DNA of 64,000 nucleotides from Heterodontus francisci (GCF_036365525.1 NC_090417.1:14881748-14945747); one strand, 5' to 3'. Positions 8,290 through 62,540 are shown, counted from the stretch's first letter. Notes: generated from the sequence alone by a model not told the origin. Made by a program: numbers and translations.

Positions 8290-8995
8290 TTTAAAAAAAT
8301 TTATTCAGGAGAGGTGGGCGTCACTGGCAAGGCCAGCATTTATTCCGTTCCAGGATTTTGGCGCAGCAATGAAGGAATGGTGATATAGTTCCAAGTCAGG
8401 ATGGTGTGCGGCTTGGAGGGGAACTTGCAGGTGGCAGTGTTCCCATGTACCTGATACCCTTGTCCTTTTAGGTGGTGCAGGTCACAGGTTTGGAAGGTGT
8501 TGTTGAAGGAGCCTTGCCGGGTTGCTGCAGTGCATCTTATGGATGGTACACACTGCAGTCCGGTGCACTCGTGATGGAGGGAGTCAAGGTTTAAGGGCTG
8601 GGGTGCCAATCAACAGGCTGCTTTGCCCTGGAGTTTCCAGAATGTTGTTGGAGCTGCACTCATCCAGTTAAGTGGAGAGTACTCCGTCACACTCCTGACT
8701 TGTGCCTTGTAGATGGTGGACACGCATTGGGGAGTCAGGAGGTGAGTTACTCACTGCAGAACTCCCAGCCTCAATCTGCTCTTGCAGGCACAATATTTAA
8801 TGTGGCAATCCTGTTAATTTTCTGGTCAATGGTGGCCACCAGCATGTTGCTGATGGGGGATTAGACAACAGTAAAGGAGGTGGTTAGACTCTCCCGTTAG
8901 ATGGTCATTGCTTGGCACCTGTGTGGCACCAATGATACTTGCCATTTCGTAGCCCGAGCCTCAATGTTGTCCAGGTCTGAATGCATGTAGGCACT
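8290..8995 (-). mobile_element. 3' fragment of the LINE family seen at 20173-23778 (older copy)
   Basis: The reverse complement matches 22600-23780, including the ATGCTGGCCTTGCCAGTGACGCCCAC tail. Confidence 0.85.
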
Positions 8996-15659: not shown

Positions 15660-15838
15660 TAACTGCTGGGTCAAAATGCTGGAACTCCCTTCCGAACAGC
15701 ACTGTGGGTCTACCTACCTCACATGGACTGCAGCAGTTCAAGAAGGCAGCTCATCACCACCTTCTCAATGACAATTAGGGATGGGCAATAAATGCTGGCC
15801 TAGCCAGCGACACCCACAGCCCACAAAGAACAAAAAAA
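15660..15838 (+). mobile_element. 3' tail fragment of the 20173-23778 LINE family
   Basis: Matches 23600-23778 (GGGCAATAAATGCTGGCCTAGCCAGCGAC...). Confidence 0.85.
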
Positions 15839-18017: not shown

Positions 18018-19274
18018 GGAAAGGGGCAGGTCATGCCTCACAAGCCTTATTGAATTCTTTGAAGATGTGACAAAACACATTGATGAAGGAAGAGCAGTGG
18101 ATGTGGTATATATGGATTTTAGCAAGGCGTTTGATAAGGTTCCCCATGGTAGGCTCATTCAGAAAGTAAGGAGGCATGGGATTCAGGGAAAGTTGGCTGT
18201 CTGGATACAGAATTGGCTGGCCCATAGAAGTCAGAGGGTGGTAGTAGATGGAAAGTATTCAGCATGGAGCTCGGTGACCAGTGGTGTTCCACAAGGATCT
18301 GTTCTGGGACCTCTGCTCTTTGTAATTTTTATAAATGACTTGGATGAGGAAGTGGAAGGCTGGGTTAGCAAGTTTGACGATGACACGAAGGTTGCTGGAG
18401 TTGTGGATAGTGTGGAAGGCTGTTGTAGGTTGCAACGGGATACTGACAGGATGCAGAGCTGGGCTGAGAAGTGACAGATGGAGTTCAACCTGGAAAAGTG
18501 TGAAGTGACTCATTTTGGAAGGTCGAATTTGAATGCAGAATACAGGCTTAAAGACAGGATTCTTGGTAGTGTGGAGGAACAGAGGGATCTTGGGGTCCAT
18601 GTCCATAGATCCCTCAAAGTTGCCACCCAAGTTGATAGGGTTGTTAAGAAGACGTATGGTGTGTTGGCTTTCATTAACAGGGGGATTGAGTTTAAGAGCC
18701 GCGAGGTTATGCTGCAGCTCTATAAGGCCCTGGTTCGACCACACTTGGAATATTGTGTTCAGTTCTGGTCGCCTCATTATAGGAAGGATGTGGAAGCTTT
18801 AGAGAGGATGCAGAGGAAATTTACCAGGATGCTGCCTGGACTGGAGGGCATGTCTTATGAAGAAAGGTTGAGGGAGATAGGGCTTTTCTCATTGGAGCGA
18901 AGAAGGATGAGAGGTGACTTGATAGAGGGGTACAAGATGATGAGAGGCATAGATAGAGTGGATAGTCAGAGACTTTTTCCCAGGGTGGAAAGGGCTATCA
19001 CCAGGGGGCATAATTTTAAGGTGATTGGAGGAAGGTTTCGGGGAGATGTCAGAGGTAGGTTCTTTACACAGAGAGTGGTGGGTGCGTGGAATGCGCTGCC
19101 AGTGGTGGTAGTAGAAGCAGATACATTAGGGACATTTAAGCGACTCTTGGATAGGTACATGGATGATAGTAGAATGAAGGGTAGGTAGTTAGTTTGATCT
19201 TAGAGTAGGTTAAAGGTTCGGCACAACATCGTGGGCTGAAGGGCCTGTACTGTGCTGTACTGTTCTATGTTCTA
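18018..19274 (+). mobile_element. Young 5'-truncated CR1 LINE (RT to 3' end)
   Basis: Near-intact ORF2 with a single in-frame TGA at 18472-18474 and FDDD at the catalytic motif. The tail ends TGTTCTATGTTCTA. Confidence 0.95.
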
Positions 19275-19890
19275 ATACATACTTAATGACACGGTTCTGA
19301 AGAGTGCAGGAACAGAGGGACCTGGGGGTGCAGTTGCATAGATGTTTGAAGGTGGCAGCACATCGTCAGAGAGTTATTATTAATGCATGTGGGGTCATGG
19401 GCTTCATAAATAGAGGCACGGAGAACAAAAGCAGCGAAGCTATGCTGTACTTTTACAAAGCTCTGTTTTGGTCTGTATCCATTGGAGTTTAAAAGAATGA
19501 GGGGTGATCTTATTGAAAGATAGAAGATCCTGAGGGGACTTGATAGGGTGGATGTTCAAAGGACGTTCGTTTGCCCTTGTGAGAAAGACAAGAACGAGGG
19601 GCCAAAGTTTAAAATAAGGGGTCGCCCATTTGAGACGGAGATGAGGAAAAGATTTTCTCTCAGAAAGTTGAGAGTTTTTGGAACTCTCTTCCCAGAGAAT
19701 GGTGGCAGCTGTGTCAGTGAATATTTTTAATGCAGAGGTAGAGAGATTCTTGACTAACAAGGGGGTCAAAGGGTATCGTGAGTAGGCGGGAAAGTGGAGT
19801 TCACGCCACAATCAGATCAACCATGATTTTATTCCATGGCAGAGCAGGCCAGAAGGTCTACTCCGGCTCCTAATTCGTTTCTTCATGTGT
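19275..19890 (+). mobile_element. Older CR1 3' fragment
   Basis: QEQRDLGV...GFINRG and a CR1 3' UTR. Confidence 0.8.
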
Positions 19891-20172
19891 CCCACACTTT
19901 ACAAAGGATGTGAGGGTCCTTTACCAGAACGGTTCCAGAGATGGGGGATTTTCGTTACAAGGTTGGGTTGGAAGACTTGGGGTTATTCTCCTTGGAGCAA
20001 AGGAGATTGAGGAGAGATTTCATAGAGGTATACAAGATTGTGATATGTTTCGATTAGTTAGACAAGGAAAAACTGTTCCCATTAACAAATGGTACAAGGA
20101 CTAGGGGACAGTGATTGAAAGATTTGGGCAAAGGATGCAGGAGGAATATGAGAAAGAACTTTTTTTACGCAG

Positions 20173-23100
20173 GAGTAGGGTAGGCGGTGGCATAGTGGTA
20201 TTATCACCAGTAACTCAGAGACCGAGGGTATTGCTCTGGGGACATGGGTTCGAATCCCACCACAGCAGAAGGTGGAATTTGAATTTAATTAATAAATCTG
20301 GATTTAAAAGCTAGTCTAATGATGGCCATGAAACCACTGTCGATTGTTGTAAAAAACCATCACTAACGTCCTTCAGGGAAAGAAATCTGCTGGCCTTCAT
20401 GTGACTCCAGACCCACAGCAATGTGACTGACTCTTACATGCCCTCTGAAATGGCCTAGCAAGCCACTCAGTTGTATCTAACCGCTACGAAGTCAATAAAA
20501 ATGAATGAAACTGGACGGACCACCTGCATCGACCGAGGCACCGGAAACGACAATGGCAAACCCAGCCCCGTCGACCCTACAAAGTCCTCCTTACTAACAT
20601 CTGGGGGCTTGTGCCAAAGTTGGGAGAGCTGTCCCACAGACTAGTCAAGCAACAGCCTGATATAGTCATACTCACGGAATCAACCTTACAGACGATGTCC
20701 CAGACACTGCAATCACTATCCTTGGGTATGTCCTGTCCCACCGGCAGGACACACCCAGCAGAGGTGGCGGGACAGCGGTCTACAGTAGGGAGGGAGTTGC
20801 CTTGGGAGTCCTCAACATCGACTCCGGACCCCATGAAGTCTCATGGCATCAGGTCAAACATGGGCAAGGTAACCTCCTACTGATTACCACCTACCGACCT
20901 CCCTCAGCTGATGACTCAATACCCCTCCATGTTGAGCACAACTTGGAGGAAGCACTGAGGGTGGCGAGGGCACAAAATGTACTCTGGGTGGGGGACTTCA
21001 ATGTCCATCACCAAGAGTGGCTCGGTAGCACCACTACTGACTGAGCTGGCCGAGTCCGAAAGGACATAGCTGCTAGACTGGGTCTGCAGCAGGTGGTGGG
21101 GGAACCAATACAAGGGAAAAACATATTTGACCTTGTCCTCACCAAACTGCCTGCCACACATGCTTCTGTCGATGACTGTATTGGTAAGAGTGACCACCAC
21201 ACAGTCTTTGTGGAGACGAAGTCCCACCTTCACATTGAGGATACCCTCCATCGTGTTGTGTGGCACGATCACTGTGCTAAATGGGATAGATTTCGAACAG
21301 ATCTAGCAATGCAAAACTGGGCATCCATGAGGCGCTGTGGGCCATCAGCAGCAGCAGAATTGTACTCAACCACAATCTGTAACCTCATGGCCCGGCATGT
21401 CCCCCACTCTACCATTACCATCAAACCAGGAGACTAACCCTGGTTCAATGAAGAGTGCAGGAGGGCATGCCAGGAGCAGCACCAGGCATACCTCAAAATG
21501 AGGTGTCAACCTGGTGAAGCGACAACCCAGGACTACTTGCATGCCAAACTGCATAAGCAGCATGCAATAGACAGAGCTAAGCGATCCCATAACCAACGGA
21601 TCAGATCTAAGCTCTGCAGTCCTGCCACATCCAGTCGTGAATGGCGGTGGACAATTAAACAACTAACTGGTGGAGGTGGCTCCACAAATATCCCCATCCT
21701 CAATGATGGGGGAGCCCAGCACGTCAGTGCAAAAGATAAGGCAGAATCTTCAGCCAGAAGTGCCGATTTGATGATCCATCTCAGCCCCCTCCTGAAGTCC
21801 CCAGCATTACAGATGCCAGACTTCAGCCAATTCGATTCACTCCACATGAAATCAATAAACGACTGAAGGCACTGAATACTGCAAAGGCTATGGGCCCTGA
21901 CAATATTCAGGCAATAGTACTGAAGAGCTGTACTCCAGAACCTGCCGCAACCCTAGCCAAGCTGTTCCAGTATAGCACAACACTGGCACCTTCCCAGCAA
22001 TGTGGAAAATGGCCCAGGTATGTCCTGTACACAAAAAGCAGGACAAGTCCAACCCGGCCAATTACCGCCCCATCAGTCTACTCTCAATCATCAGTAAATT
22101 GATGGAAGGTGTCATCAACAGTGCCATCAAGCAGCACTTTCTTCGCAATAACCTGCTCAGTGATGCTCAGTTTGGGTTCCACCAGGGCCACTCAGCTCCT
22201 GACCTCATTACAGCCTTGGTTCAAACATGGACAGAAGAGCTGAATTCAAGAGGTGAGGTGAGAGTGACTGCCCTTGACATCAAGGCAGCATTTGACTGAT
22301 TATGTCATCAAGGAGCCTGAGCAAAACTGGACTCAATGGGAATCAGGGGGAAAACACTCTGCTGGTTGGAGTCATACCTAGCGCAAAGGAAGATGGCTGT
22401 GGTTGTTGGCTCCAGGACATCACTGCAGGAGTTCCTCAGGGTAGTGTCCCAGGCCAAACATCTTCAGCTGCTTCATCAATGACCTTCCTTCAATCATAAG
22501 GTCAGAAGTGGGGATGTTCACTGATGATTGCACAATGTTCAGCACCATTCGCAACTCCTCAAATACTGAAACAGTCCGTGTAGAAATGCAGCAAGACCTG
22601 GACAATATCCAGGCTTGGACTGAAAAGTGGCAAGTAACATTTGCGCCACACAAGTGCCAGGCAATGACCATCTCCAACAAGAGAGAATCAAACCATCTCC
22701 CCTTGACATTCAACAGCATTACCATCGCTGAATCCCCCACTATCAACATCCTAGGGGCTACTATTGACCAGAAACTGAACTGGAGTAGCCATATAAATAC
22801 CGTGGCTACAAGAGCAGGTCAGAGGCTAGGAATCCTGCGGCGAGTAACTCACCTCCTGACTCCCCAAAGCCTGTCCACCATCTACAAGGCACAAGTCAGG
22901 AGTGTGATGGGATACTCTCCACTTGCCTGGATGGGTGCAGCTCCAACAATACTCAAGAAGCTCGACACCATCCAGGACAAAGCAGCCCACTTGATTGGCA
23001 CCCCATCTACAAATATTCACTCCCTCCACCACCGACGCACAGTGGCAGCAGTGTGTACCATCTACAAGATGCACTGCAGCAACGCACCAAGGCTCCTTTG

Positions 23101-23778
23101 ACAGCACCTTCCAAACCTGCGACCTCTAGCACCTCGAAGGACAAGGGCAGCAGATGCGTGGGATCACCTCCTGTCCAAGTCACACACCATCCTGACTTAT
23201 TTATTTATTTCGAGATACAGCACTGAAACAGGACCTTCGGCCCACCGAGTCTGTGCCGACCAACAACCACCCATTTATACTAACTCTACAGTAATCCCAC
23301 ATTCCTTACTACCTACCTACACTAGGGGCAATTTACAATGGACAATTTGCCTATCACCTGCAGTCTTTGGAGCACCTGGCGAAAACCCACACGGTCACAG
23401 GGAGAACTTGCAAACTCCACACAGGCAGTACCCAGAATTGAACCCGGGTCCCTGGAGCTGTGAGGCTGCGGTGCTAACCACTGCACCACTGTGCCGCCCT
23501 TCATTGCAGAGAATTCACTTGGATGTTTCCTCTCCACAGTGAAAAGTCTGGTCATGCAGCCTGGGAAAGGACATAGGAACTGTATCATCGTTCCTTCACT
23601 GTCACTGGGTCAAAATACTGGAACTGGCTTCCTAACAGCACTGTGGGTGTACCTACCCCAAATGGACTGCAGCGGTTCAAGAAGGCAGCTCACCACCAGC
23701 TTCTCAAGGGCAATTAGAGATGGGCAATAAATGCTGGCATAGCCAGTGATGCCCACATCCCACGAATGAATAAAAAAA
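20173..23778 (+). mobile_element. Full-length single-ORF LINE (APE endonuclease + RT) with a tRNA-derived 5' head
   Basis: A box TGGCATAGTGG at 20188-20198 and B box GGTTCGAATCC at 20247-20257. EN starts at about 20581 (LLTNIWGLVPKLGEL..DIVILTES, VGDFNVHH, SDH). RT motifs: NYRPISLL, ALDIKAAFD, GVPQGS, MFTDD. Ends GAATGAATAAAAAAA. Several frameshifts and stops. Confidence 0.9.
23199..23500 (-). mobile_element. HE1/V-type SINE nested in the LINE
   Basis: Reverse complement of the 53281 SINE with an (AAAT)n tail. Confidence 0.9.
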
Positions 23779-24369
23779 AGCAAGTGGTAATGACCTGGAA
23801 CTCGCTGCCCACAAGGGTGGTGGAAGCGGAAACGATCAATGACTTCAAAAGGAAGTTGGCTGGCCACCTGAGAGAAGTAGACTTGCAGGGCCACGGGGAT
23901 CGAGCTTGGAAGTGGGCCTGCCTGCATAGCTCCGTAGAGAGCAGGCATGGTCTCAATGGGGCAAATGGCTTCCTTCTGTGACATAAATGACTTTCTCTCT
24001 CTTTCCAGGACTCCTAAAATTTGCCCATCCTCTCTGCAGATAGCAGGCCAGAGCACTAACTGAAAAGGGACAGGGGAAACTAAAGATGGGAGTATCAAAA
24101 GTAGAACAGAGAGGAAAAAATAAACCACGTTGCTGCACACTGGGATTCCAACACACTACAGTGACTAGTAGCACAGCACCTTCTAACTTGTAAGCTGTAC
24201 CTCATCTTATTCAGGCTGCCAAAGGTATTTGACTCATATTTGAATGTTTCATGTTCCGAGGAAGGGAACAAACTGAATGCAAAGATATCTTCGAGCAAGA
24301 CTGGCCTGCACTGTTGTCACCTGTTTCAAATGTGCAGTCTCCAGATTAGCAGACTTTGAAATGTTCAGA

Positions 24370-37997: not shown

Positions 37998-38690
37998 CTG
38001 CAGTGGTTTTGTTATTGGACTTGTAATCCAGAGACCTGTACTAATGCTTCGGAAACATGAGTTCAAATCCCACAACGGCAGCTTGTGGAATTTAAATTCA
38101 ATTAATTAATAAATGTGGGAAAAAAATGCCAATCTCAGTAATGGTGATAATGAGACTACCGTTATATACCGATCTGTTTCACCAACGACATTCAGGGAAG
38201 GAAATCTGCCATGCTTACCCGGTCTAGCTTACGTGACTCCAGATCCACGCAATGGGTTTGATGCTTAACTGCCCTCGGAGATGGCCTGGCAAGCCACTCA
38301 TTTGTATTCAACTGCTACAGAAGTCAAATAAGAATAAAACCAGATAGACCACCGGCATCAGCCTACGCACTAGAAATAACCAAGTCACATCCTGCCCAGT
38401 TAGCCCTCACAAACATCTGGGGGCTTGTGCTAAAATTGGGAGAGCTGTCTCTCATATTAATCGAGCAACAGCCTGACATAGTCAGACTCATGCAATCATA
38501 CCTTCCAGCCAATATCCCAGTCCCCTCCATCACTATCCCTGTCCTGTGTCACCGGAGGTGGCGGCACAGTGGTATGTAGTCAGGAGGGAGTGGTCCTGGG
38601 AGTCCTCAACATTGACTCCGGACCTCATGAAGTCTCATGGTGTCAGGTCAAACATGGGCAAGGAAACCTTCTGCTGATTACCACCTACCA
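37998..38690 (+). mobile_element. Older 5' portion of the tRNA-headed LINE family
   Basis: Degenerate head (GAGTTCAAATCCC B box), the same body as 20280-20480, then EN start AACATCTGGGGGCTTGTG through CTGATTACCACCTACC. Confidence 0.85.
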
Positions 38691-54109: not shown

Positions 54110-54650
54110 GGAAGATATTCTGCGGCATGTAACTCACTTCCTGACTCTCCCAAGTCCCTCCACCATCTACAAGGCACAAGTCAGGAGTGTGATGGAATAC
54201 TCTCCATTTGCCTGGATGAGTGCAGCTCCAACAACATTCAAGAAGCTCGACACCATCCAGGACACATCTGTCTGCTTGACTGAAAGGCCAACCACTAGCT
54301 GAAACTTCCATCACCGGCACACCATGGCAGCAGTGTGTACTACCGACAGGACGCACTGCAGCAACTTACCAAGCCTTCTTTGACAGCACCTCCCAAATCT
54401 GTGACCTCCACCACTTCGAAGGGCAAGGCAGCAGGTGCATGGGAACACCACCATCTCCAAGTCACAGCATCCTAACCTGCACATAAAGGACTGCTACTTC
54501 TTGGGGGCTGGGACAAATCCTGGAACTCTCTACCTAACAGCATTGTGGGAGCACTTTTACCATGTGCATTGCAGCGATTCAAGAAGCTGCACCAGCACCT
54601 TCTCAAGAGCAACAAGGGATGGGCGAGGCCCACATCCTGAGAATAAATTC
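54110..54650 (+). mobile_element. Old 3' fragment of the 20173-23778 LINE family
   Basis: STIYKAQVRSVMEYSP..WMSAAPTTFKKLDTIQD matches 22870-22980. Confidence 0.85.
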
Positions 54651-62247: not shown

Positions 62248-62540
62248 GTCGCACAGTGGTAATGACACTGGACTAGTAATCAGAGGCTCAAGCTAATGCC
62301 CTGGGGTCATGGATTCAAATTCTACCATGGCAGCAGCTGGTGGAATTTAAATTTAATTAGTAAATAAAAATTCAATTTATTAATTAAAAATCTGGAATTG
62401 AAAGCTCCTCTCCGTACCAGTGCCATGAAACTCACTGATGGCCGTAAAAATGCACCTGGTTCACTCATGGCCTTTCGAGAAGGTAATCTGCCATCCTTAC
62501 TTGGTCTGGCCTACATGTGACTCCAGAACCACAGCCATCT
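62248..62540 (+). mobile_element. tRNA-derived head and body homologous to the 5' end of the 20173 LINE
   Basis: GCACAGTGGTAATGACACTGGACTAGTAATCAGAG...GGATTCAAATTC...GTGACTCCAGAACCACAGC; stops before the endonuclease. Confidence 0.8.

Follow-up and report, generated by a model that had tools for sequence, protein, structure and literature searches.

A tRNA-headed, T-run-poor Zenon-type LINE of sharks and rays that is probably transcribed by RNA polymerase III

A 64,000-nucleotide (nt) stretch of the Heterodontus francisci genome (GCF_036365525.1 NC_090417.1:14881748-14945747; hereafter the window, with positions counted from its start) holds a full-length copy of an abundant ~3.3-kb long interspersed nuclear element (LINE) of the Zenon type. 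The copy starts with a tRNA-like head, and the family's single open reading frame (ORF) is depleted of T-runs. [quoted passage not shown] We give about even chances to a further-reaching proposal, in which a shark and ray Pol III RNA of 3.3 kb would be translated uncapped, and with no in-frame AUG, into an endonuclease-reverse transcriptase (RT) of ~970 residues. This RNA would be a natural Pol III messenger predating the shark-ray split, and its partner short interspersed nuclear element (SINE) would consist of the LINE's own head and tail joined. The copy in the window comprises the following parts.

20177/20178-23779, plus strand: whole element, a full-length dead copy of a ~3.3-kb head-bearing Zenon-type LINE; 36 of the 39 copies fetched align to it at ~90% over the full length from head to tail
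20178-20275, plus strand: tRNA-like head; sharp boundary in 93 distinct LINE and 21 SINE heads, sub-threshold Rfam tRNA-clan matches
20188-20198, plus strand: candidate Pol III type-2 A box by sequence; same in LINE and SINE column majorities
20247-20257, plus strand: candidate Pol III type-2 B box by sequence; same in LINE and SINE column majorities
20319-20472, plus strand: conserved body common to LINE and SINE, at whose end SINE homology stops; 3 LINE/SINE differences over ~165 columns
20456-20458, plus strand: TAG preceding the main frame, which then runs for ~975 codons without a stop across the family, between the majority-stop columns 305 and 3233
20505-20644, plus strand: AUG in another frame, downstream of an A-rich stretch and starting a 46-codon ORF that overlaps the main ORF start (shifted in the window copy)
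20584-21250 (end approximate), plus strand: APE-type endonuclease region, broken in the window copy; Pfam PF03372, E 1.6e-6, and PF14529 on 20661-21041
22033-22765, plus strand: RT domain, broken in the window copy; Pfam PF00078, E 1.7e-11 and 7.2e-8
23705-23779, plus strand: 3′ tail common to LINE and SINE, with ORF stop (23715-23717), AATAAA (23726-23731), predicted stem-loop and A8 tail

The Heterodontus genome measures 6.0 Gb, and an endonuclease query gave 5,353 first-look candidates, a figure that is not a copy number. Among 39 copies that were seeded with the head, and are biased in that respect, 36 extended from head to tail. Two other sets were blind to the head. Seeding with the endonuclease gave 29 copies, of which 14 reached the start of the head, 3 stopped inside the tRNA part and 12 were truncated further in. 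Seeding with a distant protein (47 matches scored, 30 loci fetched) gave 19 loci that reached the head start, 2 that stopped inside the tRNA part and 9 that were truncated. When 12 5′-truncated copies were compared, neither an alternative upstream sequence in register nor an ORF1-bearing form was found; in one pair, a 250-nt match lies out of register and is probably host repeat. The first-pass annotation had suggested that head and ORF2 arrived as one unit, and this holds: head, endonuclease-RT ORF and tail move together as a 3.3-kb unit (family length, 3,297 core columns). In the head-blind sets, it was not the case that most full-length copies lacked the head or carried an ORF1. A one-off SINE lying beside a LINE by coincidence is ruled out by this copy structure and by published consensuses, and seeds from diverged copies gave mostly the same family rather than a separate older one.

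The element almost certainly belongs to the same family as the elasmobranch Zenon-1 consensuses of the CR1 group, as judged by sequence similarity. Its first 400 nt are, by eye, near-identical to those of the consensuses CarCar, RhiTyp, ScyCan, SquAca and HypSab, all of which open with the same head and lead into the same ORF start. These five are described as 3,244 to 3,314 nt long, with a single APE-RT ORF and a poly-A tail but without ORF1 (Stuart et al. 2026, PMC13343379); the family is thus already catalogued, as a consensus in the supplement of 2026. In an RT tree, which lacks named Zenon references, the element clusters with the proteins P0001 to P0003 and L137 at a support of 0.93, away from the host CR1 and L2-like proteins. 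L137, the closest relative with DNA (480-760), has no tRNA head and 7 runs of four T residues (T4); among the metagenome relatives of the tree set, L137 alone shares with the shark element a short GGACGG word, which precedes the endonuclease motif by 73 nt in L137 and by 84 nt in the shark element. For five organisms, sequencing runs contain 0.55 or more of the sampled element words. In contigs assembled from four runs, all 30 bins were covered and the SINE-type joint was present in all four, and two of the contigs listed bridge the end of the head-body part and the endonuclease. A scan of viral contigs for the element gave no match. Pieces of it, with 63 to 86% identity, occur in NCBI/UniRef gene models of sharks and rays (P0005, P0013, P0015, P0022, P0023 and P0028), which represent either mis-annotation or exonisation.

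The first-pass annotation had placed the A box and the B box at exactly the positions given above, and both were recovered there, near the 5′ end and at type-2 spacing. ARAGORN detected no tRNA in the window, and Rfam matches stayed below threshold (tmRNA model, E 0.01, for the window copy; tRNA-Sec model, 19.7 bits, for a younger copy). The 5′ boundary lies 10 or 11 nt before the A box in the 93 LINE heads and 10 nt before it in the 21 SINE heads, and conservation falls to background at −11/−12 and −11, respectively. Since the LINE and the SINE share this 5′ end, full-length LINE RNA appears to have started where SINE RNA starts, and the start site of such SINE RNA is a Pol III start. LINE and SINE heads show 13 differences in their first 100 columns and none within the 22 box positions (P = 0.03). 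In the published elasmobranch consensuses, the A box is kept, by eye, in 5 of 5 species and the B box in 4 of 5.

The sense strand of the window copy (20173-23778) has no T4+ run, versus 17 A4+, 13 C4+ and 9 G4+ runs, and neighbouring CR1 stretches contain 5, 6 and 2 T4+ runs. The first-pass annotation had been right about these patterns, including the frequent A4+ runs; on its own, however, the zero count is not beyond chance, as it deviates from base shuffles (P = 0.006) and not from dinucleotide shuffles (P = 0.11). Across the family, the majority columns of 26 copies contain 8 TTT and no T4, compared to 15 A4+, 13 C4+ and 8 G4+ runs. Internal T4 runs are scattered in single copies, and 25 of 30 near-intact copies have none. 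We then compared five stop-free ORFs with synonymous-codon shuffles that kept amino acids and codon usage fixed. T3+ runs numbered 4 to 6 versus 12 to 14 expected (P ≤ 0.001). For the terminator set TTTT plus TVTTT, as defined in PMC8466645, none was present in three ORFs versus 3.9 to 4.4 expected (P, 0.003 to 0.01). Observed versus expected numbers of TTT across codon borders were 0/10.3, 1/9.9 and 1/10.5 (P = 6e-4, allowing for TpG excess). Runs of A3, C3 and G3 were not depleted, and Phe made up 1.9% of residues versus 3.2 to 4.3% in six controls. By this measure, the ORF's sense strand carries fewer TTT, TTTT and TVTTT motifs than expected.

Other LINEs did not behave in this way. A CR1 family of the same genome (8 copies) had T3 at expectation and 9 to 12 T4 per ORF, and 15 decayed L2 copies from that genome had a cross-codon TTT count of 80/87. 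The 40 headless relatives with ORFs of at least 850 amino acids (aa), out of 80 from metagenomes, showed a T3 count of 2130/2130, 4 to 43 T4 each and cross-codon ratios of 0.60 to 1.58. Of the 80 metagenome loci, many of whose contigs may stop short of the 5′ end, one had an upstream match to a strict B-box pattern. Selection for Pol III read-through, as proposed in the first-pass annotation, is partly supported by the depletion of TTT and of TTTT/TVTTT beyond codon shuffles and unlike in control LINEs, whereas the count of T4 alone is not significant.

Several findings weigh against transcription by Pol III. In the comparison with codon-shuffled controls, which the first-pass annotation had proposed, T4 runs in the ORFs numbered 0 to 1 versus 1.9 to 2.7 expected (P, 0.07 to 0.25), which is not significant; the absence of TTTT is thus rejected as proof, given both the dinucleotide and the codon shuffles. 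The T3 statistic was picked after this result had been seen. Codon borders also carry fewer isolated TT than expected (VT|TV, 7/16; ~0.4 to 0.6 of expectation). Three shorter relatives outside the set of 40 (L147, L151 and L200) likewise have no T4, and L151 (660 aa, partial, no visible head) has a cross-codon TTT count of 7/19.7. All focal copies are one lineage and provide only one evolutionary observation. The B box is degenerate in the ray consensus, and roughly half of the heads carry TATTT, a moderate terminator in B2 SINE assays (PMC8466645), in the stretch from the A box to the B box (24 head TVTTT matches, 47 copies). At the 3′ ends, T4+ precedes the A tail in 13 of 98 cases, with T-runs that span 0 to 10. 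The first in-frame AUG that most copies keep is codon 285, past the endonuclease. Finally, Kojima 2024 argues that Pol III processivity limits elements of this kind to ~1.3 kb.

T|T at codon borders is rarer than terminators alone would require, and L151 is partly depleted without a visible head. Both points fit an explanation in which the captured head contains a Pol II promoter that drives the element, or Pol II acts on the Pol III promoter, and the avoidance of T-runs has a different cause (U-tract-binding proteins, RNA sensors, targeting by small RNAs or a bias in how the RT copies). This would also be in line with the use of Pol II by LINEs according to established knowledge, with the AATAAA and A tail at the 3′ end and with Pol II use of Pol III promoters, reported by the title of a reference in PMC8223928. 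Nevertheless, depletion is stronger for TTT (0 to 0.1 of expectation) than for isolated TT (0.4 to 0.6), the Pol II LINE controls of the same genome are not depleted, the LINE start coincides with the SINE start, and the A and B boxes are conserved. We regard Pol II transcription as unlikely, though worth serious consideration. As a separate observation, the stretch L151:703-2682, a distant headless LINE fragment with 26% T, contains no T4 where 6.4 are expected from base content; it is either a chance outlier or a second case.

Transcription by Pol III would leave the question of how the protein is made. Exo_endo_phos and RVT_1 both score over the Pfam cut-offs, and the endonuclease core begins ~405 nt into the element, close to the ~400 nt given by the first-pass annotation. 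That annotation had also read the missing ORF1 as telling evidence; since this trait is general to Zenon (PMC13343379), it does not argue for Pol III and is rejected as proof. In 26 uninterrupted copies, two of which share flanks, a single frame shows no majority stop between columns 308 and 3232, with the same result for 55 copies; 5 of 47 scored matches have no internal stop. Roughly 10 AUGs lie upstream of the main ORF. The ATG of the 46-codon ORF was kept in all 28 copies in which the site was found (30 examined), and the five published consensuses, by eye, have it as well. In the close relatives P0001 and L137, a Met lies right in front of the endonuclease. With no in-frame AUG before the endonuclease, the protein would have to come from a non-AUG start or a frame shift. 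Read-through of the TAG was rejected as a start mechanism, since two published consensuses have, by eye, spacers downstream of it that deviate in length by 1 and 4 nt, which does not preserve the frame. Also dismissed was a TATA-like word ahead of the short ORF, which only about half of the copies have and none of the five published consensuses shows. Engineered Pol III RNAs are described as translatable (PMC8223928).

Variants shared by at least 8 copies (CpG sites excluded) were synonymous in 26 and nonsynonymous in 16 cases, compared to 444 and 1,144 among singletons (P = 7e-6). This excess of synonymous changes indicates that source elements needed their protein. By this sequence criterion, the ORF is under purifying selection in source elements, which agrees with the autonomy of the family asserted in the first-pass annotation. 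The same finding bears on a split life cycle, in which the Pol III RNA would be the template and the protein would come from another RNA, e.g., a capped RNA that Pol II makes by reading through the same locus or others. All sequence signatures would be covered without translation of an uncapped RNA, and Pol III transcripts, Alu among them, transpose on ORF2 provided in trans and do not require ORF1 (PMC2666806). However, purifying selection on the ORF requires a link between the protein of a locus and the copying of that locus, and the ~10 upstream AUGs and the lack of an in-frame AUG would persist in a read-through mRNA; we hold such a cycle to be improbable.

If the family is indeed transcribed end to end by Pol III, its cycle might proceed as follows. 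TFIIIC would bind the A and B boxes, Pol III would start 10 to 11 nt upstream of the A box, and it would halt at a T-run at or past the 3′ end. The uncapped RNA would be translated either from a non-AUG codon or by frame shifting from the upstream ORF of 46 codons, and the protein would insert its own RNA and the SINE RNA by target-primed reverse transcription. Source elements that gained a terminator would yield a shortened RNA without the 3′ recognition tail and would leave no copies. As a last alternative, Pol III would have transcribed an ancestral element but no longer recent source elements, whose scarcity of T-runs would be a legacy of that past. Slow evolution of the family (elasmobranch consensuses are more than 84% identical; PMC13343379), the rise of TATTT in the head of one subfamily and the degenerate ray B box speak for such a relic. 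However, the box sequences match the consensus in the youngest copies, and none of 42 listed lineage variants gives a TTT codon, although this test has low power. We consider a relic very improbable.

The AATAAA lies 40 nt from the element end, the family 3′ ends have A tails, and a stem-loop in the 3′ tail is a predicted fold. Those 3′ ends that have long T-runs have shorter A tails. T-runs at SINE 3′ ends elongate after insertion (PMC8466645), and the combination of long T-runs and short tails fits this process; because of such lengthening, terminal T(n)A(n) does not give a clear record of Pol III termination. In five 3′ ends (L261, L264, L267, L268 and L269), 4 to 10 T residues that are not target-site derived stand directly before the A tail; these, by their sequence, would give the copies their own Pol III terminator.

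The partner SINE in the Heterodontus genome consists of the first ~320 nt of the LINE joined to its last ~75 nt (79 to 85% identical per copy), and SINE copies link the end of the conserved body (20472) to those last ~75 nt. The conserved body is presumably a Deu-like domain, and the partner SINE is presumably SacSINE1. Its build fits the description of the tRNA-Deu SINEs SacSINE1/LmeSINE1 of sharks, skate, chimaera and coelacanth, which consist of a tRNA head, conserved body and LINE tail (PMC5499810). Capture of a SINE head by the LINE in an elasmobranch ancestor is tentatively favoured over an origin of the SINE as a LINE deletion, because headless Zenons occur elsewhere and Deu-type SINEs have a wider range.

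The insertion site of the window copy and later changes to it involve these features.

19920-20176, plus strand: host CR1 5′ part; adjoins the right flank directly in 4 uninterrupted CR1 copies
last ~5 nt of this part (ending at 20176), plus strand: probable target-site duplication
23199-23501, minus strand: later antisense SINE of a different tRNA-headed family, outside the LINE family; missing from other copies
23502-23575, no strand assigned: 74-nt stretch inserted with or beside the antisense SINE; missing from other copies, no match among fetched loci
23780-23992, plus strand: host CR1 3′ part

The CR1 flanks were contiguous in 4 uninterrupted copies among the fetched loci, which confirms that the element split an older CR1; the overlap of at most ~7 nt fits a short target-site duplication. 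Duplications are short in the family, and automatic detection succeeded in only 4 of 16 full-length copies. The end of the element is approximately as claimed in the first-pass annotation, whereas the start is at 20177/20178 instead of 20173, which sets the true limits at about 20178-23779. The window copy is dead, with a broken ORF and a later 377-nt insertion at 23199-23575. Within the antisense SINE, Rfam gave a tRNA match at 23423-23495 on the minus strand (23.2 bits, under the gathering score), and a SINE of this second family is also inserted in four other family copies (L041, L042, L058 and L066). An older copy with head and endonuclease is present at 38002-38688 (plus strand; 71% to the reference copy), and its head resembles, by eye, the published Squalus-type consensus; the fusion of head and LINE thus appears to be old in the Heterodontus genome. 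More fragments of the family or the SINE, with 67 to 89% identity, lie at 62255-62503, 54129-54624 and 15666-15838 (plus strand) and at 8299-8986 (minus strand). A young CR1 3′ fragment is located at 18475-19280; its family has more than 150 matches at 96 to 97% protein identity, some copies with ORF2 frames of 960 to 980 codons.

Pol III normally makes only short noncoding RNAs. That LINEs are Pol II messages and SINEs short Pol III noncoding RNAs is stated as a general rule (Kojima 2018, 2024), and Kojima 2018, 2020 and 2024 treat Pol III elements as short and nonautonomous. A natural 3.3-kb coding Pol III transcript, if real, would break this rule and would need an undescribed route of translation initiation. 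The family would provide a direct test case for Pol III processivity and for the link between polymerase and ORF1 need (PMC2666806), and it bears on the origin of conserved SINE bodies, as the SINE here is two LINE ends joined. No report of a Pol III-driven autonomous LINE was found in the open literature searched, which excludes subscription journals and Repbase and Dfam entries. The main text of PMC13343379, its preprint and the whale shark preprint make no mention of tRNA or polymerase III; head, promoter and T-run loss go unremarked in the searched text.

The element shares with Zenon the single ORF with APE and RT, the absence of ORF1 and the poly-A tail; Zenon elements of elasmobranchs, coelacanth and hagfish are all described as lacking ORF1 and ending in poly-A (PMC13343379), and both traits extend to Lepidoptera. 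Hagfish Zenon-1 has a headless start and many T4+ runs, and the coelacanth Zenon 5′ end is of low confidence and cannot be judged. The lepidopteran Zenon-derived SIDE (short internally deleted element) keeps the Zenon 5′ end and is described without tRNA homology or a Pol III promoter (PMC6740152). Bipartite nonautonomous LINEs/SIDEs (PMC5786205) resemble the partner SINE in being short elements of LINE 5′ and 3′ ends; in the model of Kojima 2018, however, the LINE is a Pol II element and the tRNA head is added after deletion, whereas here the coding LINE itself is headed. SacSINE1/LmeSINE1, as described, have the same build as the partner SINE, are noncoding and are tied to a LINE, L2-2_CM, only by their tail (PMC5499810). 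The SINE class requires a lack of coding capacity, and the shark element, with its ~975-codon ORF under purifying selection, falls outside it. Cassandra, Helenus and Ajax (TRIMp3; PMC10886601) and T+ SINEs (PMC8466645) combine an internal Pol III promoter derived from a small RNA with AATAAA and an A tail, features that the shark LINE, with its putative promoter, has as well; unlike the shark LINE, they are nonautonomous, at most ~1.3 kb long and, as described, never protein-coding. In tRNA/LINE-1 chimeras (PMC13174262), a tRNA is likewise fused 5′ of a LINE, but these are 21 single loci, mostly with antisense tRNA halves, and not a self-propagating family like the shark element.

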